Shown here one piece after another: positions 5,120-43,398 of a stretch of DNA of 43,900 nucleotides. The position numbers were made by a program, and so were the translations under genes. Each line of letters starts with the position of its first letter. Positions within the stretch are counted from its first letter, which is position 1. The stretch lies in the sequence record NC_028901.1; one strand, written 5' to 3'. The DNA comes from Escherichia phage slur05. The notes under the pieces are model-generated. The model did not search any database. It worked only from the letters and a program-made list of their open reading frames with translations, and was not told the DNA's origin.

Positions 5120-6805
5120 TTATGCTTTAGTCAGTGCCTCGACCGCGACTTTCAAATCAGCTACGGCAGCTTTCAGTTCTGCAATCTCGGCCTTGTTCGC
5201 CTCGTCACGCGCTCTTAACGCTTTAATAGCTGCCAGGCAATCCGCGACAAGCGGGTTTAAGTCTAACGTCATCATCCCCGGCACTTCGTGGTCGTGCACA
5301 TATTCCCTGTCAACCGTTGCCGCTTGCTGTGCAATGATTCCGCGTCGCGTAGATCTCTCCGGTTCGTCAAACGTGTACCGGAACAACTTAAACTCAAGGC
5401 GGTTGATGTTATCCAGTGCCGCTTCCACATTTAAATTGCCCTTAATATCCTTCACACGGGCGTCAGACTTACCAGCATCTTGCACCCGCGACCATGTTTT
5501 CGTTGTGGAGGAGACTTGCGCGTTGCCGGAGTCGTTCCAACGATAGTAGAGCGCTGGCAGCGCGCCGACCATAACCTGTGCGACACGAGAGGGCGTGTAG
5601 GCAGATTGAAATCCTGCTCCGTTTACCGGTGCCCATGTAGGGGTGCTGATCGACTGCGAGAAAAAGCAAGCCTGCGTATTTGGGGGCGCGTATGAGTATT
5701 CAATCCCAAGTCCGTAGTCCCCCGGCTTCACCGCTTCGCACCAGTTCTGCAGCGCACCATTCTCTTTAGTTCTCCAGAAAAAACGGCTTTGACGTGCGGC
5801 GAACTGTACCGCGTAGTTTTCCTCAAACTTAACATGCAGACCCGCCGCCGAAGTACCCTCGATCGGTGATCCGAAGACGGTAGCGAGATAGGTGCTTCCG
5901 TCAACTTCGTTCCAACTTCCGCCAGGTGCGTTGCCGTTAATGCCATAATCCCCAACGCCGATTGCGTTGAGGGTCTGCCGTGCCGCTGATTTGTCAGTGA
6001 GGTCGGTTAGGTTGTTACTTACCTTAGCGTATTGAGACGGGTCAACCTCGTTTTTGAATTGTTCGGCCTCGTTCCTGTACCCCTGAGCGGCATCACGGGC
6101 GGCTTGCGCGTCCGTCTTCGCGGTGTTGGCCTGATCGCGAATAACTCCGGTATCCGTCTTAATTTGGTTGGTCTGGTCCTTGATGGCCTGCGTATCCGTC
6201 TTAATCTGGTTGGTCTGCGTCTTGATGGTATTGGTGGCGTCGTGGATAGCCTGTGTGTCCGTCTTAATCTGGTTGGTGTTGTTGTAGATGACCTGCGCGC
6301 CTTCCTTGAATCCTTTAGCTTCGTTCCTGGAATTCTGCGCGGCTGCTTCCGATGCGGCGGCTTGTTGCTGCAGGTCGCGCATTTCCACTGGGTCGATCTG
6401 TTTCATCAACTGCGACAGGTATCCCCATGACATACCCTGCATCACCTGCCCGTTCGGCAGCGTGACCGTGATTTCTTCAGCGTCGCCGAAGATTGCACGC
6501 CAGTTGTTTTCATCTGCAATCATCAAGCGCAATGCTTTTTGAGCCTGTACGGTAACGCCCATCGTTGCCAGTGACATGGTATCGCGCTTAACACCATCCC
6601 ACGCAAGGCCGGTTGCCGTTGGGCCGTCGAACGGCAACACCAGCGTGAGCGCGGTTGCGCTTTCAATGGACGCGATTGCCACGGTGTATGGGACTTGTCC
6701 TACCACCAGCGTCAAGAAGTCGCCAGCTTTAAACGCAGTAAACGTTGTGCCGACCCCTACTACAGCCTTGCTATTATTCGTTACAGATAGCGTACCCGCT
6801 GCCAT
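5120..6805 (-). CDS. Tail fiber protein
   Basis: 561 aa with Gly/Thr-rich N-terminus, tandem repeats TNQIKTDTQAI(K/H)DQ, C-terminal coiled coil; sits in the tail module with a strong terminator at 5089-5115. Confidence 0.65.
   Translation of the reverse strand: MAAGTLSVTNNSKAVVGVGTTFTAFKAGDFLTLVVGQVPYTVAIASIESATALTLVLPFDGPTATGLAWDGVKRDTMSLATMGVTVQAQKALRLMIADENNWRAIFGDAEEITVTLPNGQVMQGMSWGYLSQLMKQIDPVEMRDLQQQAAASEAAAQNSRNEAKGFKEGAQVIYNNTNQIKTDTQAIHDATNTIKTQTNQIKTDTQAIKDQTNQIKTDTGVIRDQANTAKTDAQAARDAAQGYRNEAEQFKNEVDPSQYAKVSNNLTDLTDKSAARQTLNAIGVGDYGINGNAPGGSWNEVDGSTYLATVFGSPIEGTSAAGLHVKFEENYAVQFAARQSRFFWRTKENGALQNWCEAVKPGDYGLGIEYSYAPPNTQACFFSQSISTPTWAPVNGAGFQSAYTPSRVAQVMVGALPALYYRWNDSGNAQVSSTTKTWSRVQDAGKSDARVKDIKGNLNVEAALDNINRLEFKLFRYTFDEPERSTRRGIIAQQAATVDREYVHDHEVPGMMTLDLNPLVADCLAAIKALRARDEANKAEIAELKAAVADLKVAVEALTKA
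6100..6300 (-). repeat. In-frame tandem repeats (~33 bp units) inside the tail fiber gene
   Basis: Repeated CCGTCTTAATCTGGTTGGTCTG-type units encoding TNQIKTDTQAIxDQ. Confidence 0.6.
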
Positions 6806-14219: not shown

Positions 14220-16862
14220 TCATCGTTTGTAAAGTACACCACCCGGTTTCGTCGCCTTCACGATCTCGGCCTTGACCGACTCGGTGATTTGCTTCCCGAA
14301 CGCCTGCGCGGTGCGCGGGTCTGGTCCGCTAACACTGGTATCCGTCTTACCGGTCCCCATGTTAACGTTGGTCGTTACAATCATCCCCCCGCCTACACCG
14401 GCAGCGGCGACTCCAAGTTTGCCGTCCGGGCCGCGCTTCAGTGGCATGATGGCTTCGGGTCCGGCCTCACCCATCAATCCTGCGCCCTTAGCGAACGCCT
14501 TGACGCCATAACTGAAAAAGGTTGGCTGGCTTACCACCTGCCCCGAATAGGCCGCGAGATTGCCCCCTGCGTACGCTCCGCCGTCCGCATTCTTAGTGAG
14601 GCCGGAGAAGATAGCGCCGAACAATCCGTTTTTGCCGCCGTCGCCACCGAAAGCGCTAACGATGGACTTGAACGCCTGCGAGGTAGCCAGCTTTATTAAT
14701 TCGCTCAGAATGGACTTAACCATATCTTTTGCGTTCAGCTTGCCAGCCTCGAAAAACTCGTTCATCGTGTCCTGCATAGCGCCGAACGTGAATTTTGTGA
14801 GTGACGTCATCTGCGTGTAGCCGCTACCCATTTCATCCACGCTATCCTTAAGCCCGCGGCTGAAGCCATCCCATAGCGAGGCGTTAGCACCGGTCTGTGC
14901 TTCCTGCACTTCGCGCAGCTTAGACACCGCCAGGTCAATATCGGTATCGTTAGCACCAACGCGCTTAAGGCGGTCAATCAGCTGTAATTCTTCGCGCAGG
15001 TTAGCCGCTTCGCGAGTGGAAAGCGCATAGCCCGCCGCGGTGGCTTTTAGCTCGGCGTTCTGGTTCTTAACGAAGGAGTCGATCTGCGCGTGCGCCTTGA
15101 CCTGCTTCTCTTTCGCGTCCAGCAATTTGGCTTCTTCGACGATCTGCTCGCGTACTTCCTTCACGCGTCCGAATTCGACCATCTGCTGCTTTTCTGCTGC
15201 CGTTAGTGCTCTTTCTTTGCTTGCTGCGATTAACTGCTCATTATCCGCGATCAGCTTGTTTAGGGCCGCCTGCGCGCGTTGCGTGCGGGTCTGCGTCGAT
15301 GCGTTGGCTTCGATCTGCTTGCCGGATTCTCGAAGCTGGGCCAGTTCGCTCCGTGCTACTTCCAGCATTTTCAGCCCGGCATCGACTCGAACAGCGGCGG
15401 CCTTCTTCGGGGCGGGGTCTTTGTACCGCTCGTTGACCTGCTTCACCGCCTCGGCAAGCTCTTTCTCGTCAATCACGCCGCGCTTATTAAGCAAATTGAG
15501 GCGGGCGATCTCGTCGGCGCGCCTCTTCGCGTTGGTTGCGTACTCCTTCTCAAACGCGGCGCGGTCGCGGGCGGTGCGGTTTGCCTCTTCGTTCGCCTTT
15601 GCTGCTTCGTCAGCGGCACTTGCGTTGTCTCGCTCTGCACGGTTGCGCAGGGTGAGCGACGCCACTACTTTTTCCTGGGCTACCAGTTCGCTGTAAAGCA
15701 TGTTAATACGCGCTTTCTGCGCTTCGGTCATCACCCCACCGGCAGCGTTTACCGCTTTCATCTCGGCATAGTAAGCCGTGGTCAGTCGCTGCAATGATTC
15801 ACGCGCTTTCATCTCTGACTCATTCGAGGACTGCGCGCGCCCGACATCCAGGATGGCATCCCACATAGATTTAGCTGCCGATATAACGACGTTCATCGAC
15901 CGCTCAAGCGTACCCATGTTGGACTTGATCTCATTGGTCATAGTGGTAAACGACGCTGCGGCTGTTTTGTTAGCCAGCGCCACCGCTTCGGTTTCGCGAC
16001 CAGCCGTCACTAGTGACTGCACCTGCTGGATCTGCGCTTCGTTTACGACGTGATACTTATCCGCCAGCGCACGCAGTCCGCCAACGGGGTCGGTTGACAG
16101 CTTCGCCACCGCCGCCACCACATCCTCGATCGGCTGGCTGGACACCTTCGCAAAGTCATTAACTACCTTAGCCAATGCGCCGAAGTCACCACCCGCTTTC
16201 ACACCCGCCGCCGCCAGCGCCTGGATTGTGTCACGCGTCTTGCGGAATGATCCGCCCATGCGCTCGGCGTTCTCGGATAACACCAGGATCTGGTTTGCAG
16301 TGAGGCCGGAAATGTTACCTGACAGCGCCAGCGTCTTGTTAAGCGCGGCGACCTGGTTCTCTGCGCGGGACGTAATTGCCACGCCCACGCCTAACGTTGC
16401 CGTTACGGCGGCGAGGCCGATCCCTACTGGGCCGAGGAAGCCCGCAACATAACGCAGCGTGTTACCCAGTCCACCGAACGCCCCAGTTAGCTGCGGTAAC
16501 TGCTGAAGCATGACGCGGTGAACCGGCATCCCCATCTCAAGCGTTACCGCAATATCCTGTAGCTGGAATGCGGCGTTACGCGAGGCAAAGCCCAGGTTTT
16601 TAGTCGACATCCCTAACCTGTTGGCGAGTCGCTCCTGTTTAGTCATGCCATCGGCGGCGCGCTGCGATTCGTTTGCCAGCTTTTCCATTCCGCCCGCGGC
16701 GTCACTCGTCACCTTTTTGGATTTGCCGAGGGTGTCGTTTAATTTCTTAACCTTGTTTTCTGTGTTCTCGGATTTCTGTGCGAAGGAGTCCAGCACAGTA
16801 TTTGCCGTTCTGATTTGTGCAACATCAGCCTTTAGCGTGATGCCTGCTGCCTGATCTGCCAT
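14220..16862 (-). CDS. Tail tape measure protein
   Basis: 880 aa, long Ala/Glu/Lys-rich coiled coil and Gly-rich C-terminal region; between chaperone and minor tail genes. Confidence 0.8.
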   Translation of the reverse strand: MADQAAGITLKADVAQIRTANTVLDSFAQKSENTENKVKKLNDTLGKSKKVTSDAAGGMEKLANESQRAADGMTKQERLANRLGMSTKNLGFASRNAAFQLQDIAVTLEMGMPVHRVMLQQLPQLTGAFGGLGNTLRYVAGFLGPVGIGLAAVTATLGVGVAITSRAENQVAALNKTLALSGNISGLTANQILVLSENAERMGGSFRKTRDTIQALAAAGVKAGGDFGALAKVVNDFAKVSSQPIEDVVAAVAKLSTDPVGGLRALADKYHVVNEAQIQQVQSLVTAGRETEAVALANKTAAASFTTMTNEIKSNMGTLERSMNVVISAAKSMWDAILDVGRAQSSNESEMKARESLQRLTTAYYAEMKAVNAAGGVMTEAQKARINMLYSELVAQEKVVASLTLRNRAERDNASAADEAAKANEEANRTARDRAAFEKEYATNAKRRADEIARLNLLNKRGVIDEKELAEAVKQVNERYKDPAPKKAAAVRVDAGLKMLEVARSELAQLRESGKQIEANASTQTRTQRAQAALNKLIADNEQLIAASKERALTAAEKQQMVEFGRVKEVREQIVEEAKLLDAKEKQVKAHAQIDSFVKNQNAELKATAAGYALSTREAANLREELQLIDRLKRVGANDTDIDLAVSKLREVQEAQTGANASLWDGFSRGLKDSVDEMGSGYTQMTSLTKFTFGAMQDTMNEFFEAGKLNAKDMVKSILSELIKLATSQAFKSIVSAFGGDGGKNGLFGAIFSGLTKNADGGAYAGGNLAAYSGQVVSQPTFFSYGVKAFAKGAGLMGEAGPEAIMPLKRGPDGKLGVAAAGVGGGMIVTTNVNMGTGKTDTSVSGPDPRTAQAFGKQITESVKAEIVKATKPGGVLYKR

Positions 16863-16926
16863 TATGCAGTCCCCTTTTTTATGCAGTTGCCGATGGATAT
16901 TGTATCAGCTATTTCAAAACAAACCT

Positions 16927-17246
16927 TATTCAGTCTCAGACGAGGGGGGCCACTGACCCCCGTCTAGTCTGAAAGACTGGGGTGCTGTCCCGCTGTCCCG
17001 ATCGGCTGAAAACCGCGGCAGCACTGGCGGGGACGGGGTGCTGTCCCGCTTTGTCCCGCCTCTTGTTTGTCCCGCTTTCTGTCCCGTTTGTTTTATGCAC
17101 GAAAACCGAATACGTATGCACTTTTGTGGGGTGGGACAAAACGGGACGTCCCGCTTGTCCCGCTTTTTATTATGCAATGGAAGTGAGTAGGTATGCAGTT
17201 TCACAGGGGTGGGACAAAACGGGACGTCCCGCCTGTCCCGCTTCAT
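16927..17246. repeat. Structured non-coding repeat element, copy A: hairpin, GTCCCGC iterons and two GGGACGTCCC palindromes
   Basis: Core 16927-17100 is ~85% identical to 33700-33870; bulged stem-loop AGACGAGGGGGGCC...CCCCCGTCT, at least 6 GTCCCGC iterons, sub-repeat GGGTGGGACAAAACGGGACGTCCCGCNTGTCCCGCTT at 17127-17167 and 17207-17245. Confidence 0.8.
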
Positions 17247-17937
17247 TATGCGGGGTTCTGCTGCGCCATCTCATCAAGCGCGATTCGTTCCATTAGCTTG
17301 ATATCTTTAAACGCACGCTGCTCGTTTTCGATACCGTGCATCTTAAATAACCACTCCAGCACGCCGTAGTCGATGCCGTATGCGCCACCAAATCCGGTGC
17401 GCCATTGCGTGGCGCAATCTGTGAAGACTGCGACTATCTTCGCGTTGTCAGGCCACAGCGCAACAGGTGGACAAACATCTTCGGGGGCCGCACCCCATAA
17501 ACTTGCGGCTAAATCTTCGGAGGGTGGCGGCGGGCCATAAAAGCGTCGCGCCGCCTCAATTAGTTTTTTTCACGCAACCCCATCAGTTCGAGATAGTACG
17601 ACGTGTGGAACACACCGAACGCGCGTGGATAGTTGACCACCAGGCGGCGGACGTTCTCCGCGTTAAATTCGTCCGGCAGATTCCAGCCTTCTGCGACGTG
17701 CATGATGGCCTCGACCATAACGTTAAAGCCGTCCGGGTCATTGTCGTCATATTCCGACAACTTGCGTTCGGTGTCCTGCATGGTCTGCGAAAATTCGTCG
17801 ATAGGGCGGTGGCGGACGGTGAAAGTCATCTTCCCCGGCTCGTTCTCACCAGGGCGCGGGATCTCAATCGGCAGCTTAAAGGTCGGCTTAGGGTCAAGTG
17901 TAAATAGTGGTGCTTTAGCCATTGTAGTATTCTCCAA
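17247..17937 (-). CDS. Tail assembly chaperone G-T fusion made by -1 frameshift
   Basis: Minus-strand heptamer A_AAA_AAC (plus 17563-17569) at the end of the G-like ORF; the -1 frame stays open for ~105 codons (LIEAARRFYGPPPPSEDL...QQNPA) to a stop at 17247-17249. Confidence 0.6.
17560..17922 (-). CDS. Tail assembly chaperone (lambda G-like)
   Basis: Start refined to MAKAPLF with GGAGA RBS; acidic ~120 aa protein; ends at slippery heptamer A AAA AAC next to its stop codon. Confidence 0.65.
   Translation of the reverse strand: MAKAPLFTLDPKPTFKLPIEIPRPGENEPGKMTFTVRHRPIDEFSQTMQDTERKLSEYDDNDPDGFNVMVEAIMHVAEGWNLPDEFNAENVRRLVVNYPRAFGVFHTSYYLELMGLREKN
17563..17569 (-). other. Programmed -1 ribosomal frameshift site (A AAA AAC) for the G-T chaperone
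   Basis: Slippery heptamer in the last codons of the G-like ORF with an open -1 frame downstream (17247-17562). Confidence 0.6.
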
Positions 17938-28749: not shown

Positions 28750-28962
28750 TTAAACGTCGCGCCCGTAGTATCGGGTTAACATGCTTTGTACTTCTCTTAT
28801 CGCGCCTTCTGTGTAGCGTATTTGCGACAGTATTTCGATCCTCTCGTCCATCGACATTCCGACTGCCGCTGCCGTTCGTTCAAATCGGCGCAAGCCTTCG
28901 AGTTGCTTGCGTAGTTCTTTCAGGCGGGTGGCCTGCGTGCTCATGAATACTTGTCTGATCAT
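28750..28962 (-). CDS. Hypothetical small protein (70 aa)
   Basis: ORF overlapping the end of the upstream gene (ATGA-type), followed by terminator 28715-28740. Confidence 0.35.
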   Translation of the reverse strand: MIRQVFMSTQATRLKELRKQLEGLRRFERTAAAVGMSMDERIEILSQIRYTEGAIREVQSMLTRYYGRDV

Positions 28963-32664: not shown

Positions 32665-32736
32665 TGTTCTGTCTCCTTAAAGTTTAACCGTGCTGCGGGG
32701 AAGTTTAATGTTTTGCTAATCGATGCTTTCATAATC

Positions 32737-32991
32737 TTACTTTCTGTACCTGTACATGTTGTCGCCGTCTGCGGCTAGTGGGGACTCTTTCGCCCATACA
32801 GGCACGCCGCACATCAGCGCGCAAAGTTCCTCGGTAGTGTAGTCGTCGACCTCATCAAGCTCGTCGGCTGTAAGGTTGTCGCCGTCGCATACCGTAGCGA
32901 TGCCGTAATGGGTGTAGTCGTCATAGCAGGATACGAGGTCGATAAACTCCTGCGAATACCCTGCCATTAGCGTTATTTGCATTGGCGTCAT
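32737..32991 (-). CDS. Small protein paralogous to the DNA polymerase C-terminus
   Basis: Last ~36 aa (DDYTTEELCALMCGVPVWAKESPLAADGDNMYRYRK) nearly identical to the polymerase C-terminus; upstream LVSCYDD aligns to polymerase motif C LSVHDE with catalytic residues changed. Confidence 0.5.
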   Translation of the reverse strand: MTPMQITLMAGYSQEFIDLVSCYDDYTHYGIATVCDGDNLTADELDEVDDYTTEELCALMCGVPVWAKESPLAADGDNMYRYRK

Positions 32992-33151
32992 TTGCTCAGT
33001 CTCCAGTGTTTGCCTACCCGCTCAACGGCGGGCTTCCGGCGTAATGTAATACGAATTCCCATTGGTTGCAAGGAAGTCCGCACCCTGAAATCGTGTTGCG
33101 CTGCGAACTGGTGCAAGTAGCGAGTCTGCGTCAACGGCTCATTTTGGCCCC

Positions 33152-33478
33152 TTATTTCGCAAGCTGGGCGAATAGTTCACGCTGGGCTTTAATCCGGGCG
33201 ACGTTTGTCACTGCCGTCTCGCCGATCCCGAAGCGATACGCAAGGCGCTCACGGGCAAATGCAAGCGCGTAGTCCTGGATTGCGTTCGCCAGTGGCTGGA
33301 TCTCCGCCATCGTGTCGAAGCGGCGCTCCAGCATACAAGCGATGGCCTGCTGCGTGACGCGAACAACGGACCACGCTGCCGATAGTCTTTCGACCGCTTC
33401 CGCTCCTTCACCGGCGAACTCCGCCGCTTCTTGTGCCGCCGCCATAGCCATTGCGTAATTCCAGATAATCGCTTTCAT
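33152..33478 (-). CDS. Hypothetical protein (108 aa)
   Basis: Ala-rich helical ORF, first gene downstream of the 33.5-34.0 kb regulatory region. Confidence 0.4.
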   Translation of the reverse strand: MKAIIWNYAMAMAAAQEAAEFAGEGAEAVERLSAAWSVVRVTQQAIACMLERRFDTMAEIQPLANAIQDYALAFARERLAYRFGIGETAVTNVARIKAQRELFAQLAK

Positions 33479-33699
33479 TGTTCAGTCCTCATGTTGGGGT
33501 GCAACCAATATAGCAAGGTGCCAGGCGGAACGCAACCAATATTAATCACGCGCATGAAAAAGTTGATCGCTATCTGCTGTGACTGCAAACCGCATTTTTC
33601 ACTTCGCATAATGCAACTCGCATTGGTTGCCTAGTTCATCCGCGACCGCACTTCGCATCATGCTGCCGTGTATTTTGCAATCCCCGGATTTTATTCAGT

Positions 33700-33870
33700 C
33701 TCAGACGAGGGGGGCCGCTGACCCCCGTCTAGTCTGAAAGACTGGGGGTTGTCCCGCCTGTCCCGCTCCTCTCCAGGCCGCGCCATACGGGGCGGGACGG
33801 GGGTGCTGTCCCGCTTTGTCCCGCCCCTTGTTTGTCCCGCTTTCTGTCCCGCTTACTTTATGCAATAAAA
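33700..33870. repeat. Structured non-coding repeat element, copy B
   Basis: Same hairpin and GTCCCGC iteron series as copy A, with inverted GGGAC...GTCCC pairs; lies in the 533 bp non-coding region beside the primase-helicase gene. Confidence 0.8.
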
Positions 33871-33973
33871 CTGCATAACTATTCATTATATTTACACTAC
33901 ACGGCAACCAATACGACCCGATAAAAACACTCAAAATGGCAACCAATGCGCGCAAAATTTAACCTTTTAGCGA

Positions 33974-33989
33974 TATGGGAATTCCCATA
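33974..33989. promoter_or_regulatory. Perfect 16 bp palindrome TATGGGAATTCCCATA flanked by direct repeats
   Basis: Self-complementary 16-mer; GGCAACCAATGCGCGCA occurs on both sides (33938-33954 and 33992-34008); just 3' of the primase-helicase gene. Confidence 0.5.
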
Positions 33990-34012
33990 CCGGCAACCAA
34001 TGCGCGCAGGAT

Positions 34013-36277
34013 TTAATCTTTCAGATCGTCATCGGTCGCAGAAAGCGTGATGGGTATATTCGTTTTAATGACGATATTCGACGACCCATAGATGGCCCCG
34101 GTGTGCGGATCTGTATAAAAACCGAGCACGCCGCGCTCCACCATATCGTCTATTGCCTTCGTCGATGTGCCACCTTTTGCCAATCCCGCCTGGCGGACAA
34201 TTGCCGATTTACTGAATCCGGTATGGTCCGGGTTATCTTCCATCAGTTTTTCCAGTGCCGCATAAAGCACTTTCTCTTTTTCATTGCGCGGTCCTGCGGC
34301 GTTCTCATCCTTAACTGCGGCCTTGCCCGCGGCCTTCGCCTGTTCGATGGCGAACGGTGCCAGGGCGACAGGTACGAGATAAAGAGTCTCGTCGCGTGGC
34401 GTGGATGCAATTGGCTTGACGTCCCAACCGGCAACCACGTCGCCGAAGTCAGGCCCGGTGCTGGTGGACTGGTGTGATTCGAACGCTTCGGACTTGCGGA
34501 GATCCACCTTAACCTTGCACTTGAGCAGGACGAAGCCGCGCGGCGCTTGCTTGATGCCGTTACGCGCCTTTTCGTGATACAGGTTCAATTGGCCCGGCTG
34601 ATTGTCGTCCGGTTGCTCGAGGAAGAACGCAGAATCGACAGCGCCATGCAGCGCGCCGGACCCACGGGGAGATCTGCTGCCGTTTGCACCCTTCGCCGGG
34701 TGGTGGATGACGCCCGCACTGCCGCCTGTATTTTCCGCAATGGCCTTCAGCGCTTTGACCACTTCACCCATATCGCTGGCGTTGTTCTCGTCGAACGGTT
34801 TAGCATCGGCGGACCGCAGCGCAACAGTCTGGTTGAGTGAGTCGAACGCCACCAGGCCAACCGGCTCGCCGTTAGCGGTGCGGTTGATGAAGCTGATAAC
34901 TTCACGCAAGCCGGATTTGCTGGTGATATCCCAGCCGCGTGATTGCAGATCGATAATGTGCAGCTTGTCCAGGTCGTGCTCATATTTAATCTGCAATGCT
35001 TCCTTACGCTGGTTGGAGGCTTCGCCACCTTCCGCGTCGAAATAGAAGCAATGAGACTGGACGACCTTCGCGCCGCCGAACGGAATCCCCGCGGCAACCG
35101 CACCCATTTGCCCCAGCACATAGAACGACTTACCGATGTTCGACTCACCGGCAAGATACCAGGTCGATTTAAAGTTAATCAACCCCTCGATGATCGGGTC
35201 GTGCTTGCTGAACAGTGCAACCGGCTCGTTGTCCAAGTCTGCGTCCGTACATCCGCCGTACTCGTCGCCGTCTCCGACCGCATCAACGATATGCGCATAG
35301 CACGATTCCACTTCCTCGTCGTCCAGTCCTGGGAGGATGGCGGCGATTTGCTTACGTGACATGTTGTGCGGTTCGACGTTCAGGTGGTCCGGGATCCCGA
35401 TAAGACGTAGCGCCAGGTGCTGGTGTCTGTTCAGTTCGGAACAGCACTCGTTGCCGGTGTGCATACACTTGAAACGGATCTCGCCATCCTTAACCATGAT
35501 AGCGGTGGACCCTTCGCCACTATGCAGATGTTCGTTCGGGCACGGCACTTCATAACCGCGACCAGAAGATAACTCCTCGAATCCGGCCTGGAAGCACCAG
35601 TCCAGAATGCCGTCTGCCACTGCGTCGTCGCCATGGGTAAGCTCGCGGCGTACTTCCTCTTTTTCCACTCCCAGCTTATCAGCCAGGCGAAGCAGACGAC
35701 GGACGCGGGCACGTTTGCCGTAGTGACACTTAACAACCGATTGCTGGTGAGGCAGGTACATAAGGCGGTTTGTGTCTTTCGTGCAATCGTCGAAGTCCAC
35801 ATCTGACAGGCCCAGTTGGTGTAATAGTGCATACTGGACGCGGCCCAGGTCTTCAGCCGGTACAGGCTTGTCAGTGAGCACCAGGAAACGAGCGCAACGC
35901 GTGCCACCTTTCAGCGGGTGGCGATCGCCGGTTGTGGTGTGAAATACATGTTCCAGTCCCGCGTCGATGAACGCCTTACGGCAGCGGCGCAGGGTGCGGG
36001 TGTCGGTACGGTCAATATCGAAGAACAGGATCGAGCGATCCACCGCACTGGTCTTGCGGCGTAATCCGTCACTGGTATAAGCCACAATCCCATCAGCCTT
36101 ACGCTTGCGGCGCGCATACTCCGCTTTATCTTCCGTTTTGTTGATATGCACCGAGGAGATTTCTTTCGCATCATTGATAAATTCGAAAAACTCTTCGGTA
36201 GTCATCTGGAAGTTTTCCGCCCTGGCTTTTTCGCCTTTTTTAGCGGGTCGTGTTACAGCGAATTTAATCAAGCTCAT
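34013..36277 (-). CDS. Primase-helicase (primase/prim-pol-like N-terminus plus P-loop helicase)
   Basis: 754 aa; N-terminal Asp-rich motif (LFFDIDRTD), Cys/His cluster (CPNEHLH...C...NECC), Walker A LAGESNIGKS, Walker B-like LVAFDSLNQ, sensor GVIHHPAKG. Confidence 0.7.
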   Translation of the reverse strand: MSLIKFAVTRPAKKGEKARAENFQMTTEEFFEFINDAKEISSVHINKTEDKAEYARRKRKADGIVAYTSDGLRRKTSAVDRSILFFDIDRTDTRTLRRCRKAFIDAGLEHVFHTTTGDRHPLKGGTRCARFLVLTDKPVPAEDLGRVQYALLHQLGLSDVDFDDCTKDTNRLMYLPHQQSVVKCHYGKRARVRRLLRLADKLGVEKEEVRRELTHGDDAVADGILDWCFQAGFEELSSGRGYEVPCPNEHLHSGEGSTAIMVKDGEIRFKCMHTGNECCSELNRHQHLALRLIGIPDHLNVEPHNMSRKQIAAILPGLDDEEVESCYAHIVDAVGDGDEYGGCTDADLDNEPVALFSKHDPIIEGLINFKSTWYLAGESNIGKSFYVLGQMGAVAAGIPFGGAKVVQSHCFYFDAEGGEASNQRKEALQIKYEHDLDKLHIIDLQSRGWDITSKSGLREVISFINRTANGEPVGLVAFDSLNQTVALRSADAKPFDENNASDMGEVVKALKAIAENTGGSAGVIHHPAKGANGSRSPRGSGALHGAVDSAFFLEQPDDNQPGQLNLYHEKARNGIKQAPRGFVLLKCKVKVDLRKSEAFESHQSTSTGPDFGDVVAGWDVKPIASTPRDETLYLVPVALAPFAIEQAKAAGKAAVKDENAAGPRNEKEKVLYAALEKLMEDNPDHTGFSKSAIVRQAGLAKGGTSTKAIDDMVERGVLGFYTDPHTGAIYGSSNIVIKTNIPITLSATDDDLKD

Positions 36278-36617: not shown

Positions 36618-36630
36618 AATTCAGTCTCCT

Positions 36631-36647
36631 GTTGGTTAATGACCAAC
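36631..36647. promoter_or_regulatory. Operator-like inverted repeat GTTGGT-N5-ACCAAC in the leader of the HTH regulator gene
   Basis: Perfect 6 bp arms separated by 5 bp, between the putative promoter (TTGACA at 36671-36676 on minus strand) and the RBS. Confidence 0.4.
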
Positions 36648-36746
36648 GAAACTACACCTAAAACTGCATGGTGTCAAATCCTTTGGATATTGAAACGGGC
36701 GCGCACGCGTGTAATAATAATTCCCGTCTCATTGTCTCTTATTGGT

Positions 36747-36782
36747 TAGCGCCGTCGCATTTTGCCTCGGCGCTTTTTTTTT
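36747..36782 (+). terminator. Plus-strand intrinsic terminator inside the divergent regulatory region
   Basis: Stem AGCGCCG/CGGCGCT followed by T10; no annotated plus-strand gene upstream. Confidence 0.5.
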
Positions 36783-36793
36783 GAAATTAGTTG

Positions 36794-36823
36794 TTGACAC
36801 CCATCCTGCAACCAATCTATCAT
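36794..36823 (+). promoter_or_regulatory. Sigma70-like promoter TTGACA-18-TATCAT for the charged-protein operon
   Basis: Consensus -35 TTGACA 36794-36799, -10 TATCAT 36818-36823; spacer contains TGCAACCAAT. Confidence 0.55.
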
Positions 36824-37019
36824 TCACTCCGTCGACAGGATGCAGGACGCAAACTGGAGAGGGGCAACGCAGGGGCCGGATCGAAGTGTCAGGATTCCCA
36901 ACCGTGATTATATAACCAGGTCCACTACCCGAACGGGAGAACGCGCAACCTGGCAATATGTTAAGGCCACCGACGAAGTTAACTGCCGACACCTAAACTT
37001 AACCAATCGGAGATATACC

Positions 37020-37538
37020 ATGTTTGAGCAAATCGTAAACCTGATCACTCGCGGCGTAGTAGCACTGGAAGTCATCGCTAAGCATTATGAAACCGTTGGC
37101 GCTGCCGTTGGTAAGCAGGACGACAAGAAGCCGTCTAAGGCCAAAAAAGAAGTTGTCGAAGATGGCGACGATGAAGCCGAAGACGAAAAACCGGCTAAAG
37201 CTAAAAAAGCACCGGCGAAGGGTAAGGCCAAAAAAGAAGTCGTAGAAGATGACGACGACGAAGACGCCGAAGACGAAAAACCGGCTAAGGCTAAAAAAGC
37301 ACCGGCGAAAGGCAAAGGTAAGAAAGATGCCGATCCGCTGGCAGAGATGCGCGACGAAATCAAACAGTATGCCGCGATTATCGCCGGTGGTGATGACGAC
37401 GATGCTAACGACGAATTTGACGACCTGCTGGAAGCGTTCGAGATCAAATCAATCGCCAAGCTGGAAGACGACGACGTCGAAGACTTCCACAAAGATTTAA
37501 AAGAAATCGTCGAGACTTATTTCGAACTGGAAGACTAA
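37020..37538 (+). CDS. Charged repetitive protein (Lys/Ala-rich repeats alternating with acidic blocks)
   Basis: GGAGA RBS; promoter TTGACA-18-TATCAT upstream; internal repeat KKEVVEDxDDExEDEKPAKAKKAPAKGK x2; acidic C-terminal half. Confidence 0.6.
   Translation: MFEQIVNLITRGVVALEVIAKHYETVGAAVGKQDDKKPSKAKKEVVEDGDDEAEDEKPAKAKKAPAKGKAKKEVVEDDDDEDAEDEKPAKAKKAPAKGKGKKDADPLAEMRDEIKQYAAIIAGGDDDDANDEFDDLLEAFEIKSIAKLEDDDVEDFHKDLKEIVETYFELED
37140..37300 (+). repeat. Direct ~75 bp tandem repeat inside the charged-protein gene
   Basis: AAAAAAGAAGT(T/C)GT(C/A)GAAGATG...GAAGACGAAAAACCGGCTAA(A/G)GCTAAAAAAGCACCGGCGAA occurs twice. Confidence 0.6.
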
Positions 37539-39837: not shown

Positions 39838-39902
39838 GGCAACCAAGCCGAACGGGGTGGCTTCCAATAACCCCGATGCATGTGAAAATGAGGAATTGGA
39901 AA

Positions 39903-40685
39903 ATGGCTAAAGTCAACCTGAAAAATGTGCGCGTATGCTTCCTGAAAATTTGGGAACGTGATACCCCTAAACAGGATGGACAAAAACCGGCATACCGTGC
40001 CGTGATTCTTCTGGATAAAGAAGATCCGCAGGTGGACAAAGTGGAAGCGGCAGCGCGCGCAGTGCTCACCGACAAGCTGAAATCCGAGAAGAATGCCGAT
40101 AAGTGGATGGACCGCCACTACGCCCAGGATTCTAAGGAATGCGCAGTGCGCGACGGCGACGAGCGCGATGAAGTAACCGAAGAATTCGAAGGCATGTTGT
40201 ATATCAACGCCAAATCGTTCAAACAACCAATCATTCAAACGTCACTCGGCGAGAAGCAGACTGAACAAGGTCTGACCATCGACGGCGACGAGATTGAAGG
40301 CCAGGAGATCTACTCCGGTTGTTATTGCAACGTGTCCCTTGATATTTGGGCGTGGAACAACACCAACGGCAAGGGACTCGGTGCTGGCTTGCTGGGTTTA
40401 CGCTTCCGTGATGACGGTGAAGCCTTCGGCGGTGGCGGGTCTTCATGCTCCGATGAAGACCTGGACAACGACGACGAAGACGAAGCACCGCGCAAGGCTA
40501 AGAAGTCAAAACGTCGTGATGACGATGATGAAGATGACAAGCCGCGCAAGTCCAAGAAATCCAAGCGCCGCGATGACGACGACGATGAGGAAGATGAAAA
40601 ACCTCGCAAACGTCGTAAGCCACGCGATGACGAAGATGAGGACGACGACGAAGACGAAGCACCACGCAAACGTCGCCGCCGTTAA
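39903..40685 (+). CDS. ssDNA-binding protein (DUF2815-like) with charged repeat tail
   Basis: GAGGA RBS; promoter TTGACC-17-TAAATT (39809-39837); partner of DUF2800 nucleases; C-terminus has DDDEDE/PRKxKKSKRR repeats; terminator 40704-40727. Confidence 0.5.
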   Translation: MAKVNLKNVRVCFLKIWERDTPKQDGQKPAYRAVILLDKEDPQVDKVEAAARAVLTDKLKSEKNADKWMDRHYAQDSKECAVRDGDERDEVTEEFEGMLYINAKSFKQPIIQTSLGEKQTEQGLTIDGDEIEGQEIYSGCYCNVSLDIWAWNNTNGKGLGAGLLGLRFRDDGEAFGGGGSSCSDEDLDNDDEDEAPRKAKKSKRRDDDDEDDKPRKSKKSKRRDDDDDEEDEKPRKRRKPRDDEDEDDDEDEAPRKRRRR

Positions 40686-40743: not shown

Positions 40744-40914
40744 ATGCGTATTAAAGCCAGCGAAGTAAAAGTCGGGATGAAAGTATGGTCCAAGCTACTG
40801 GGGGAATATTTCACAGTTGCCGAGATTCGCAACAACGGCGAAGAGATCACCCTGTCAGACGGCATCTTCTCCATGATCGGCAGCGCTGACGCCGTAGTGA
40901 GGATAAAGCAATGA
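40744..40914 (+). CDS. Hypothetical small protein (56 aa)
   Basis: ORF whose stop overlaps the polymerase ATG (ATGA); below the ORF-track cutoff. Confidence 0.35.
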   Translation: MRIKASEVKVGMKVWSKLLGEYFTVAEIRNNGEEITLSDGIFSMIGSADAVVRIKQ

Positions 40915-43202
40915 AAGACTTCGAACGTCTGTTTCTCGACACCGAGACATTTAGCGGGGTGGACCTGAAGAAAGTGGGGGCGTACGCCTACGCAGAGCAC
41001 CCAACCACCGAGATTATGATTTGCACCTACGCCATCGACGAAGGCCGCGTGCAGACATGGGATTGCACTGAATCCCCCACAATGCCGCGTGAACTGCGCA
41101 AGGCGCTCCGCCATGTATCCCGCAAGAAAGCAAAAATAGTGATGGCTAACGGCCTCCTGTTTGACCGCCTGGTTATCCGCGAGAAGTGGGGCATCGACCT
41201 GCCGGTAAGCCAGATCGAAGACACCATGATTATGGCCTTTCGCCACGCGCTGCCCGGTAGCCTCGATATGCAGTGCCAGGTGCTGGGCGTTGACGCAGAG
41301 CACGCGAAAGATAAGGCAGGCAAGGCGCTGATTAAACGATTCTGTAAGCCCACCCCTAAGACCTACAAAATCCGCCGCTACACACGCGAGACGCACCCCG
41401 AAGAATGGGCCAAATTCTTGCGCTATGCCGCGCTGGATATTGTTGCCATGCGTGAAGTCTACTGGCGCATACCGGACTGGGGCAACTCACCGAAGGAAGA
41501 TGAAATCCTGCTCATCGACCAGTTGATTAACGACCGCGGCTTCTACGTTGACGTTGACCTGGCGAACGCCGCGATCAAAGCGGTACAGGCGCATAAGGAA
41601 GAATTGAAGGAAGAAGCCTGGGAGCGATTTGGCGGTAAGCTGACAGGCAATGACTTCCTGCCAATCCTGCGTGATATCGCCCCGGCGTTCACGATCCACA
41701 ACGCGCAAAAATCCACGCTTAACGACCTTCTTGAAGACCCGGACTTCCCCGACGAAGGCAAAGCGCTTATCGAAATGCGCCTCGGCGCGTCATCAACGGC
41801 ATCGACTAAATACAATCCGCTCGTTAATGGCCTGTCTGCCGATGGTCGCCGTCGTGGGTGTCTTCAGTACGGCGGCGCAAAGCGCACGCTACGCTGGGCC
41901 GGTAAAGGCTTCCAGCCGCAAAACCTGGCACGCGGCGAGTACAGCGACGACCACGAAGGGAAGATTAAGCGCCGCGAAGGCGAGAGCGACGTCGCTTTTT
42001 GGGTCCGGTCGCACATGCTCACCAACGGCATCAACTCCCTGTTACGCGGGACTGCACACTGGGCGTATGACATATCGAAGTTAACGGCCTCGACCGTTCG
42101 CGGGTGCATTATTCCGGCTAAGGGTAAGAAGTTTGTTGTAGCTGACTATTCTAACGTGGAAGGGCGTGGCCTCGCCTGGATCGCTGGTGAGAAAACCGCG
42201 CTAATGGTGTTTAGGGCCGGTCGCGATATTTATTGTGAAACTGCCGGTAAGATGTTCGGCCTTGACCCGGAATACATTAAAGCCAACCGCAAAGACCTAC
42301 GCCAGATTGGTAAGGCGTGTGAGTTGGGACTTGGCTATGGCGGCGGCGTGGCTGCGTTCTTGCAGTTCGCTAAAAACCTGGGCCTCGACCTTTACGCGAT
42401 GGCGGACGTCATGAAGGGCACATTCCCCGATCACATTTGGGCAGCGGCTAAACGGGGTTATGAGTACGCCCGCATTAACGAAGCGAAGCGACCGCCGAAG
42501 CCGGGCAAGAAGGACGAGCGCCCGACTTACATACTGCCTAAAAACGTTTGGCTGACCTGCGACGCGATCAAACGCATGTGGCGTGAGGCCCACCCGAAGA
42601 CGGTAGCCTTTTGGGCCGAGCTTGAGGACGCGGTGTTGTGTGCAATCCGCAATCCTGGCAAAGCGTACTGGGCTGGCGCGAACGTTCGCCCGGATGGTAA
42701 GAAAGCGCTCAAGATAGTCCGCACGAAGGCGAAGCATGACCCAACCTTCGACGAGGAACGCGACGACCCGAACGCCGCGGGGTGGTGGTTGAAAATTGAG
42801 TTGCCGTCGGGGCGTATTATGAGTTATCCGGGCATTGCGCTGTCTGTCACTACCGAGATCGACGAAGATACTGGCAAGAAACGCACCAGCACCCGCATTA
42901 AATATCAGGGCGAGAATCAGACGACCCGCCAGTGGGGCTTCCAGTACACCTACGGCGGCAAACTCACGGAAAACATCGTACAGGCGCTGTGTCGCGATAT
43001 CCTCGCATGGTCCATGCCTGGCGTTGAAGCTGCGGGATATGAGATCGTACTGTCCGTACACGATGAACTGATAACCGAAGTGCCGGATACTGACGACTAC
43101 ACAACCGAGGAGTTGTGCGCGCTGATGTGCGACCTGCCTGTTTGGGCGAAAGGCTTCCCGCTTGCCGCGGAAGGCGACATTATGTACAGGTACAGGAAGT
43201 AA
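40911..43202 (+). CDS. Family A DNA polymerase with N-terminal 3'-5' exonuclease domain
   Basis: Exo motif LFLDTETFS; polymerase motif A DYSNVEGRGLAWIAGE, motif B RQIGKACELGLGYGGG, motif C LSVHDEL. Confidence 0.85.
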   Translation: MKDFERLFLDTETFSGVDLKKVGAYAYAEHPTTEIMICTYAIDEGRVQTWDCTESPTMPRELRKALRHVSRKKAKIVMANGLLFDRLVIREKWGIDLPVSQIEDTMIMAFRHALPGSLDMQCQVLGVDAEHAKDKAGKALIKRFCKPTPKTYKIRRYTRETHPEEWAKFLRYAALDIVAMREVYWRIPDWGNSPKEDEILLIDQLINDRGFYVDVDLANAAIKAVQAHKEELKEEAWERFGGKLTGNDFLPILRDIAPAFTIHNAQKSTLNDLLEDPDFPDEGKALIEMRLGASSTASTKYNPLVNGLSADGRRRGCLQYGGAKRTLRWAGKGFQPQNLARGEYSDDHEGKIKRREGESDVAFWVRSHMLTNGINSLLRGTAHWAYDISKLTASTVRGCIIPAKGKKFVVADYSNVEGRGLAWIAGEKTALMVFRAGRDIYCETAGKMFGLDPEYIKANRKDLRQIGKACELGLGYGGGVAAFLQFAKNLGLDLYAMADVMKGTFPDHIWAAAKRGYEYARINEAKRPPKPGKKDERPTYILPKNVWLTCDAIKRMWREAHPKTVAFWAELEDAVLCAIRNPGKAYWAGANVRPDGKKALKIVRTKAKHDPTFDEERDDPNAAGWWLKIELPSGRIMSYPGIALSVTTEIDEDTGKKRTSTRIKYQGENQTTRQWGFQYTYGGKLTENIVQALCRDILAWSMPGVEAAGYEIVLSVHDELITEVPDTDDYTTEELCALMCDLPVWAKGFPLAAEGDIMYRYRK

Positions 43203-43206
43203 GATT

Positions 43207-43398
43207 ATGAAAGCAGAAATGAGCATTATGCGCGCTGGCGCGACGGACAATGACGAGATTCGAATCGTCATTAGACTGGAACGTGGCAAGACCATTACGG
43301 CACTCGTCACGCCTGAAAACCTGGCGCTGGCACTAACCGTGCGATCGGATATACCGGTAGACCTTCGTCTGCGTAACGTGGAATTGCAGACCAAATGA
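43207..43398 (+). CDS. Hypothetical small protein (63 aa)
   Basis: ATG 5 nt after the polymerase stop; overlaps the downstream start. Confidence 0.35.
   Translation: MKAEMSIMRAGATDNDEIRIVIRLERGKTITALVTPENLALALTVRSDIPVDLRLRNVELQTK

Follow-up and report, generated by a model that had tools for sequence, protein, structure and literature searches.

A probable iteron-type replication origin beside the primase-helicase gene of Dhillonviruses, with a repeat word that tracks the C-terminal winged helix of the enzyme

We propose that a non-coding element of Escherichia phage slur05 (positions 33696-33900 of record NC_028901.1, referred to below as copy B) is probably an iteron-type replication origin served in cis by the primase-helicase encoded just upstream of it, because the sequence of its repeats changes together with the DNA-binding tail of that enzyme in related phages. 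The window, by which we mean the whole stretch of 43,900 nucleotides that was analysed, is the genome of a Dhillonvirus (a slur06-like coliphage). This group includes HK578 and the BASEL phages Bas14-18, widely used model coliphages. A literature search found no published replication origin for a Dhillonvirus, and a search for the repeat word GTCCCGC returned matches to unrelated primer sequences only. In HK578, mutations that escape OLD map to the same helicase-primase and its promoter, and the authors of that study, a preprint, argue that OLD senses hairpins at iteron origins; the origin of HK578 was itself not located there, and a hairpin trigger in this phage is deduced from the escape mutations only (10.64898/2026.07.10.737580).

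Results

Genomic setting of the element

The genes around copy B are encoded on the minus strand. Beyond the non-coding gap that follows the primase-helicase gene, the order on this strand is small genes from 33478, lysis, terminase, head and tail genes, and the tape-measure gene (16862-14220), while the other replication genes (a PD-(D/E)XK nuclease, a gp2.5-like SSB and a family A polymerase) are read in the opposite direction from about 36840. The first-pass annotation had described a second hairpin and GTCCCGC series within a non-coding interval at 33479-34012, together with three short motifs and a palindrome, and all of these features are present at the following positions.

36617-36288, minus strand: small HTH protein gene, upstream of the primase-helicase gene
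34013..36277, minus strand: primase-helicase gene, 754 aa, stop at 34013
34043..34282, minus strand: region coding for the C-terminal winged helix (about residues 666-745), the proposed iteron-binding module
33479-34012: non-coding gap of 533 bp between the primase-helicase stop (34013) and the next gene start (33478)
33992-34001, 33938-33947 and 33903-33912, minus strand: three ATTGGTTGCC motifs, two of them inside a 54-bp tandem duplication
33974-33989: 16-bp palindrome TATGGGAATTCCCATA, inside the 54-bp tandem duplication
33853..33900, minus strand: AT-rich module, 77% A+T against 45.5% for the window
33751..33852, minus strand: copy B iteron array, with GCGGGAC at 33852, 33840, 33824 and 33814 (spacing 12, 16 and 10), inverted at 33792-33798, then at 33766 and 33757
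33696..33744, distal end of the array: imperfect GC-rich hairpin of 49 nt, DNA fold z about -3.1
33479..33695, minus strand: distal non-coding part, with three more ATTGGTTGC motifs at 33501, 33532 and 33622 (inverted)
16931..17243, minus strand: copy A, with hairpin 16931-16979, core array 16987-17087, AT-rich module and two extra modules

A repeat unit present in two copies

Copies A and B belong to a 195-nt direct repeat (16926-17120 and 33691-33885, 82% identical), the two copies lying 16.8 kb apart, one before the tape-measure gene and the other after the primase-helicase stop. The 49-nt hairpin sequence is identical at 33696-33744 and 16931-16979 and absent elsewhere in the window. Read on the gene strand, the unit runs from the AT-rich module through four direct GCGGGAC words, one inverted and two direct ones to the GC hairpin. 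The word, GTCCCGC on the other strand, was observed 22 times in the window against 8.3 expected, a count reached by none of 100 shuffles, and its only clusters in the genome are copies A and B. Copy B holds seven within 102 bp (33751-33852), six direct and one inverted, which start at 0/12/28/38/inverted 54/86/95; with spacings of 9, 10, 12 and 16 bp, it thus contains more than the three short repeats at roughly helical spacing that mark an iteron array. Copy A holds eight exact GTCCCGC words in 16987-17241, or nine sites if GTCCCG[CT] is allowed, and its array includes further GTCCCGA/GGGAC variants.

When 18 copy-B and 16 copy-A sequences were aligned, the spacers varied but the GTCCCG(C/T) words were invariant; most of these loci had been fetched via an exact 23-nt anchor within the hairpin, and the conservation of that stretch is partly by construction. 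Both copies were present in 157/157 Dhillonvirus records of the phage collection, and at the DNA level nowhere else. A selfish or neutral (MITE-like) repeat, a packaging (pac) site or an unrecognised coding sequence might be considered, given that the 195-nt unit exists in two copies and that annotators have called small ORFs over both (33701-33955 and 16926-17246). We regard these explanations as highly improbable, since both copies are kept in every one of these records and in a lineage whose helicase is only 68% identical, the conservation is centred on the repeat words and not on a reading frame, with 1-nt indels in the G/C runs, the terminase genes lie at least 5 kb away, and the position beside the helicase gene is kept in relatives with unrelated words.

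As DNA, the hairpin folds at -13.4 to -14.1 kcal/mol with the above z-score on either strand. Phages differ freely in its loop but keep its stem; in the lineage with the 68%-identical helicase (L050) the copy A stem carries one compensatory change of A:T to G:C. It is a candidate single-strand priming or assembly signal.

The AT-rich tract noted earlier was likewise recovered, and its composition supplies the AT-rich stretch next to the iterons that an iteron origin has. It contains TTATGCA-N7-TGCATAA (33858-33878) and GCATAACTATTC (33873-33884), and is a candidate DNA-unwinding region or auxiliary-factor site. The 7-nt centre of its near-palindrome was seen in both orientations among near-identical phages, which, speculatively, would fit frequent hairpin formation at this module.

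Flanking motifs and transcription signals

The GGCAACCAAT motifs at 33903, 33938 and 33992 are a genome-wide promoter-associated motif and are not specific to an origin. The window contains GCAACCAAT 15 times where 0.45 would be expected, always in intergenic positions, where it reads ATTGGTTGC in the direction of the gene that follows, whose start codon is 20-75 nt further on; ATTGGTTGC often provides a -35-like TTGC, with a -10 about 17 nt beyond. Related lineages have their own version of the motif, and the intergenic 21-nt repeats of T1 and TLS recall it (PMC11447400). Among Dhillonviruses, the number of ATTGGTTGCC copies at copy B ranges from 1 to 3, and the 54-bp duplication, comprising the palindrome and the third motif, is absent from about half of the Dhillonvirus sequences read. 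The 16-bp palindrome is thus a strain-variable insertion and not an origin-specific element.

A sigma-70-like promoter, TTGCGT-17-TATATT, could be read directly for the gene starting at 33478, although the consensus scan did not call it. The downstream genes are served by this promoter, which is 200 bp or more past the array, and the array is therefore not needed to explain their expression. The distinction bears on a second explanation, in which the element controls transcription where early genes give way to late ones and once more inside the tail operon. On this view the repeats would serve as operators or as sites for an activator, the AT-rich modules would be promoters of low strength, and the hairpin would signal RNA processing or attenuation. 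In keeping with this, copy B is situated between the replication genes and the block of small, lysis and structural genes and is flanked by promoter-associated ATTGGTTGCC motifs, the copy A modules read TGCATA-N17-CATAAT just downstream of palindromic repeat blocks, and in Ioannina-type phages a rho-independent terminator immediately precedes copy A. However, the consensus scan found no sigma-70 promoter in 33000-34300 and only one marginal site in 16600-17700, upstream of copy A, and in most of the putative -10 elements the critical last T is missing (CATAAA). Nor does a T/U run follow the hairpin on either strand, and an Rfam scan of the whole window gave no RNA family match. As the repeats moreover track the helicase domain and not the XRE or HTH regulators, and the downstream genes have the separate promoter described above, we consider transcriptional control improbable as the function of the element. 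The only terminator-like sites were plus-strand hairpins arising from the inverted iterons of copy A, which were judged incidental.

Domain plan of the primase-helicase

The primase-helicase is assigned to PHROG 3228 ('replicative helicase-primase'). Its helicase domain matches Pfam AAA_25 (E=4.9e-20, residues 357-531), and RepA of RSF1010 (1G8Y) gives a weak sequence match (E=0.49). An AlphaFold model of the N-terminal part (residues 1-340, pLDDT 86) matches the AEP domain of S-2L PrimPol (6ZP9, E=7e-5) and, as a fold-level likeness only, the catalytic domain of RSF1010 RepB' bound to initiator DNA (3H25, Foldseek probability 0.97, E=5e-3). D87-x-D89 and the Cys/His zinc motif C246/H252/C271/H273/C279 are invariant. 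The last 114 residues were modelled by AF2 as H-beta-H-H-beta-wing-beta with a core pLDDT of 80-90, and the top Foldseek matches of the C-terminal model were all winged-helix proteins (the H1 globular domain, MarR/MepR, ArsR and the Rio2 wH), with weak E-values of at least 0.15. As modelled, then, the primase-helicase is an N-terminal AEP primase, a zinc motif, a RepA-like helicase and a C-terminal winged helix in one chain. Such a chain would unite three functions of RSF1010, namely a RepB'-like primase, a RepA-like helicase and, presumably, a RepC-like iteron binder, a combination which supports an iteron origin.

The repeat word tracks the C-terminal domain in related lineages

Full-length homologues of the helicase, 43-49% identical, are found in Cornellvirus-like Salmonella phages and metagenomic siphoviruses. 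We examined 13 related lineages, GRNsp27 and 12 more, all with helicases in this range except for one divergent Dhillonvirus-like lineage at 68% (L050), which was the only useful result of a 14-mer scan of viral contigs that otherwise gave mostly chance matches. A non-coding gap of 300-650 bp directly follows the helicase stop in 13/13 lineages, with an array of a word particular to the lineage. In most of them an AT-rich module comes first, then direct repeats, one or more inverted repeats and again direct repeats, with a GC hairpin at the end. In GRNsp27, for instance, two GTGAATAGTTATTC modules are followed by GGGGAGA words starting at 0/11/28, inverted at 47 and direct at 83, and then by a GC hairpin. 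GC hairpins are found at the same position in L040, L041 and L044-L047, and in these lineages and GRNsp27 (L040, L041, L044, L045, L046, L047 and GRNsp27) the GAATAGTTATGCAG module, in two copies, stands directly before the first iteron whatever the word.

This conserved near-palindromic module GAATAGTTATGCAG, of the form G(A/C)ATA-NN-TAT(G/T)C, is carried by the Dhillonvirus AT-rich tract, which is thus more than low-complexity sequence, and is common to relatives with different iterons. Since it is conserved across lineages with different words, the AT-rich near-palindrome is probably recognised by a conserved factor or by a conserved part of the enzyme.

The repeat word, in contrast, is lineage-specific, GCGGGAC in Dhillonviruses against GGGGAGA in GRNsp27, and reads as follows in other lineages.

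L037 and L039: ACTCGCAA
L038: GGGGATC
L040: TCCGACA
L041: AGGGATAA
L042: AGGGAT (AGGGATA in the word list)
L043: TCCGCACA
L044: GCGGACAA

Divergence within the helicase is by far greatest in the C-terminal approximately 80 residues, which track the repeat word. Over 105 pairs, C-terminal identity predicted which pairs share a word with an AUC of 0.974; the same measure gave 0.83 when taken over the N-terminal region, 0.85 over the helicase and 0.78 over the post-helicase segment. Three comparisons illustrate this.

GRNsp27 and L040, words different: N-terminal 95%, helicase 97%, C-terminal 52% identical
L040 and L045, word same: N-terminal 68%, C-terminal 89% identical
L037 and L039, word same: C-terminal 55% identical (21-42% to others), N-terminal region and helicase no closer than to other lineages

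Furthermore, 4/4 words were foretold blind from the C-terminal domain alone: TCCGACA in P0120 and P0086, AGGGATA in P0071, and GGGGATC in P0019, whose array is small. We therefore propose, from this co-variation, that the iterons are bound by the C-terminal winged helix of the primase-helicase. The match between recognition helix and word is imperfect, the GG-RRRPA helix of L040 resembling those of lineages with GGGAT words, yet its word being TCCGACA.

Only about 100-200 bp separate the C-terminal codons from the iterons, and such physical linkage would bring some co-inheritance even without a functional link. The comparison of GRNsp27 and L040 is informative here, as their DNA homology continues through the gene end and the AT-rich module and resumes after the hairpin, while inside the array each word is replaced in a scaffold that is itself retained. 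With the scaffold retained and the words different, many sites appear to have changed in concert, so that the pattern looks like concerted change and not a single cassette swap. The conserved stretch between codons and array and the site-by-site replacement of the words speak, as an argument and not a test, against a simple cassette swap.

Three other proteins were considered as iteron binders. The upstream XRE regulator was excluded, being identical at 71/73 positions between GRNsp27 and L040 though their words differ, as was the small gene between XRE and helicase, which is different or absent among the three TCCGACA lineages. The Dhillonvirus HTH protein gp45 (Sigma70_r4-like) was rejected on the ground that relatives which keep the array layout have no homologue of it. 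Kagunavirus and Jerseyvirus relatives (helicase 32-34% identical) are arranged differently, the helicase gene being followed directly by an XRE gene.

Copy A is an old duplication

Copy A occupies a non-coding gap that has the tail-chaperone frame on one side and the tape-measure start (16862) on the other. It is a complete unit with hairpin, array and AT-rich module, in agreement with the earlier suggestion of a second site of the same kind or a duplicated element, and its two extra modules each carry a palindromic four-site block, CGGGACGTCCCG (17142-17153 and 17220-17231). It is present in L050 and absent from the Cornellvirus-like GRNsp27, which has one locus only. Judged by this distribution, copy A is older than the split from the L050 lineage (helicase 68% identical), and copy B is the ancestral site and copy A a retained duplication.

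Discussion

Initiation or binding only

The co-variation of word and winged helix speaks for binding specificity and not for initiation. The arrays could accordingly be binding sites of the primase-helicase but not the start site, acting as control, enhancer or barrier loci, the true origin being at another place such as the AT-rich divergent promoter region (36618-36839). It is general background that iteron arrays downstream of initiator genes can be control loci and not origins, as with P1 incA and F incC, and binding-only models may be named after titration or handcuffing as at P1 incA, an enhancer as at P4 crr, or a fork barrier of the kind suggested at SPP1 oriR. G+C is lowest (47%) at 36-37 kb, and the minimum of the cumulative GC skew falls in the same place (about 36-37 kb, the divergent promoter region) and not at 33.8 kb; this profile is confounded by the switch in gene orientation, which it follows, and is thus uninformative on the origin. 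For SPP1 oriR, bound initiator has been proposed to stall forks (PMC6316719; PMC3485210). No GTCCCGC cluster exists elsewhere in the window, however, including 36618-36839, so that a sequence-specific initiator would be without sites at the supposed other origin. The unit has all that an origin needs in iterons, a 77% A+T module and a hairpin, relatives such as GRNsp27 have only this one array, and copy-number control would be of little use to a virulent phage. For these reasons we think it unlikely that the arrays serve for binding alone.

Copy B as the origin is the reading we prefer. The architecture first offered in its favour was reduced in one respect and strengthened in another: the GGCAACCAAT motifs are found genome-wide and the palindrome is strain-variable, whereas the position is kept in relatives and the word co-varies with the winged helix. 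As regards host factors, TTATGCACG fits the DnaA-box consensus at 8/9 positions in copy A and some copy B sequences, which we set aside as too weak and too variable, and inspection by eye found no IHF consensus.

A model for initiation at copy B

In our model, the C-terminal winged helices would bind the GCGGGAC repeats, both direct and inverted, and thereby concentrate and orient subunits beside the AT-rich module, which would melt, possibly aided by transcription from the ATTGGTTGCC-type promoters directly upstream. The RepA-like helicase ring would then load and unwind the DNA. On the exposed single strand the GC hairpin would form and act as the entry or priming signal for the RepB'-like AEP primase, as ssiA and ssiB do for RepB', and the primer would be extended by the phage Pol A with the gp2.5-like SSB. 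Copy A, a complete second unit, would bind the same protein and might act as another origin, or as an initiator-bound fork barrier or looping partner by analogy with the proposals for SPP1 oriR and P4 crr.

A broader scenario can be entertained only tentatively, and we think it rather less likely than not to hold as a whole. Winged helix and iteron words would form an exchangeable specificity cassette, swapped repeatedly by close relatives (for example those with 95-97% identical helicases and GGGGAGA as against TCCGACA), each lineage becoming a private replicon; Dhillonviruses would have duplicated the origin unit into the tail operon, where the initiator-bound second copy would switch the replication mode together with the first by looping or fork arrest; and the hairpin would be sensed by OLD or Lamassu. 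If replicons are private in this sense, a co-infecting relative could neither fire nor titrate the origin of another lineage. With a named origin candidate and its binding partner, it becomes testable how replication is started by one chain that combines AEP primase, RepA helicase and winged helix, and likewise whether copy A acts like SPP1 oriR or P4 crr and whether OLD is triggered by a hairpin at the origin. Near-identical helicases between which winged helix and iterons have been swapped also provide ready-made specificity variants for engineering or for the study of how protein-DNA recognition evolves.

Relation to known replication systems

The element is best filed, on the comparisons made here, as a well-supported addition to the iteron-origin kind, with a single-chain IncQ-like initiator, swappable specificity and a duplicated unit as its notable traits. 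The origin of RSF1010 combines iterons, an AT-rich stretch and a hairpin priming signal that is exposed after unwinding (PMC8567376; PMC4234260). The phage element resembles this IncQ oriV, and the enzymes share the helicase and primase folds, a RepA-type AAA_25 and a RepB'-like AEP, RepC being the iteron binder of RSF1010. In contrast to RSF1010, the phage has the three activities in one 754-aa chain, with a C-terminal winged helix in place of RepC; no separate gene for a RepC-type initiator was found, the winged helix being fused to the helicase. Its repeats are words of 7-8 bp, spaced by 9-16 bp and some of them inverted, whereas RSF1010 iterons are about 20 bp, and each unit has one hairpin where RSF1010 has ssiA and ssiB on opposite strands. 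The replicon here is also a virulent siphovirus with its own Pol A and SSB.

ORF904 of pRN1, like a protein of Bordetella phage BIP-1, joins an AEP prim-pol, a helicase and a C-terminal winged helix, and the pRN1 origin lies directly downstream of the replicase gene and has a required stem-loop (PMC4234260). The phage element is likewise directly 3' of its replicase gene and has a conserved hairpin, but pRN1 differs in its SF3 helicase, its stem-loop of about 100 nt and its lack of iterons.

The P4 alpha protein is a single polypeptide in which primase and helicase are joined to a C-terminal winged helix that binds short origin repeats (PMC4234260). The phage primase-helicase has the same domain plan in one polypeptide, and its role in origin binding would be the same by inference; alpha, however, has a Toprim-type primase and an SF3 helicase, in contrast to the AEP primase and RecA-fold, RepA-like AAA_25 helicase of the phage, and neither alpha nor the P4 origin-binding domain gave a PDB sequence match or a specific fold match to the phage protein. 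The P4 ori and crr are reportedly two cis loci that share a repeat and lie a few kb from each other, one adjoining the gene (work ascribed to Flensburg and Calendar, 1987, and Ziegelin and Lanka, 1995). Copies A and B of Dhillonviruses similarly are two separate cis loci with the same repeat.

SPP1 is a virulent siphovirus of about 44 kb with two similar units that combine direct repeats with an AT-rich DUE and stand about 13 kb from each other, one accompanying the initiator gene and the other in a non-coding gap interrupting late structural genes, and the phage initiator binds both (PMC6316719). At oriR, fork stalling by the bound initiator is proposed to trigger the switch from theta to sigma (concatemeric) replication (PMC6316719; PMC3485210). 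The replication machinery of SPP1 differs, consisting of a separate origin-binding protein gp38, a loader gp39, a DnaB-type helicase gp40 and the host primase and polymerases, and its oriL is inside gene 38 and not downstream of it; a separate origin-binding protein, loader or DnaB-type helicase was seen in 0/10 proteins encoded around the Dhillonvirus element, and none is annotated in the related phage Oekolampad. The Dhillonvirus units are nevertheless likewise placed, one alongside the replication genes, the other in a non-coding gap among the late genes, and by analogy SPP1 offers the closest parallel to copy A.

Probable promoter-associated intergenic motif

The motif ATTGGTTGC (GCAACCAAT) occurred 15 times in the window, against an expectation of 0.45, at the following positions:

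ATTGGTTGC motif sites, window 2205, 2222, 3880, 6822, 22821, 22834, 33061, 33501
ATTGGTTGC motif sites, continued, window 33532, 33622, 33904, 33939, 33993, 36808, 43649

The sites were intergenic and pointed towards the downstream gene, and a -35-like TTGC was often found within the motif, with a -10 element located approximately 17 nt further downstream. Related lineages each carried a variant of their own (ATGTTGGCTGC, GTTGGCAGCAA and GTTGGCCGCAA). ATTGGTTGC is likely to be a phage promoter-associated motif, and we liken it to the 21-nt intergenic repeats of phages T1 and TLS.

Sequence elements near the iteron arrays and in related phages

Within the AT-rich module of copy B, the iteron unit that follows the primase-helicase gene, a 21-bp element, TTATGCA-N7-TGCATAA (window 33858-33878), was found with its 7-nt centre reading either ATAAAAC or GTTTTAT in Dhillonviruses that are nearly identical apart from this difference, a small inversion polymorphism flanked by 7-bp inverted repeats.

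The Ioannina-type loci L033 and L023 contained a rho-independent terminator of canonical form, GGCCGGGTAATTCCGGCC and then TTTTT. Read along the gene strand, it lay shortly before the array, separating copy A (the second iteron unit) from the tail-chaperone frame. The window had no such terminator at this place. The loop of the Dhillonvirus hairpin held no inverted iteron copy, in contrast to four related lineages (L040, L044, L045 and L046), in which the loop of the post-array hairpin held an inverted copy of the lineage's own iteron, TGTCGGA or TTGTCCG.

Among other relatives, the Cornellvirus-like GRNsp27 (L034) carried four tandem 11-bp units with CCGAAAG (28782-28830) where convergent genes are separated by a short intergenic gap. 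A non-coding stretch of approximately 130 nt that contained GGGGAGGGTT-type repeats as well as a hairpin was highly conserved between Kagunavirus and Jerseyvirus (L035, 1360-1500; L036, 1130-1270), where it occupied the divergent region upstream of the HTH and primase-helicase operon. This stretch may represent the equivalent cis element of these genera, differently placed.

Other repeats in the window

Further repeats were observed as follows:

32714-32847 and 43092-43225, inverted repeat of 134 nt, 84% complementary
36840-37538 and 39876-40685, long acidic Asp/Glu-rich repeats
37143-37322, 90-bp tandem duplication among the Asp/Glu-rich repeats
6113-6297, 80-nt repeat present three times, the copies overlapping (offsets 42 and 63 nt), within a 561-aa ORF (5120-6805, minus strand)

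At the 134-nt inverted repeat, the DNA polymerase gene (40911-43202, plus strand) had its 3' end duplicated, in inverted orientation, inside the ORF at 32737-32991 (minus strand), the product of which matched the C-terminus of a phage DNA polymerase PHROG. The Asp/Glu-rich repeats belonged to an unknown protein (PHROG 3127) and to the C-terminal part of a gp2.5-like SSB.
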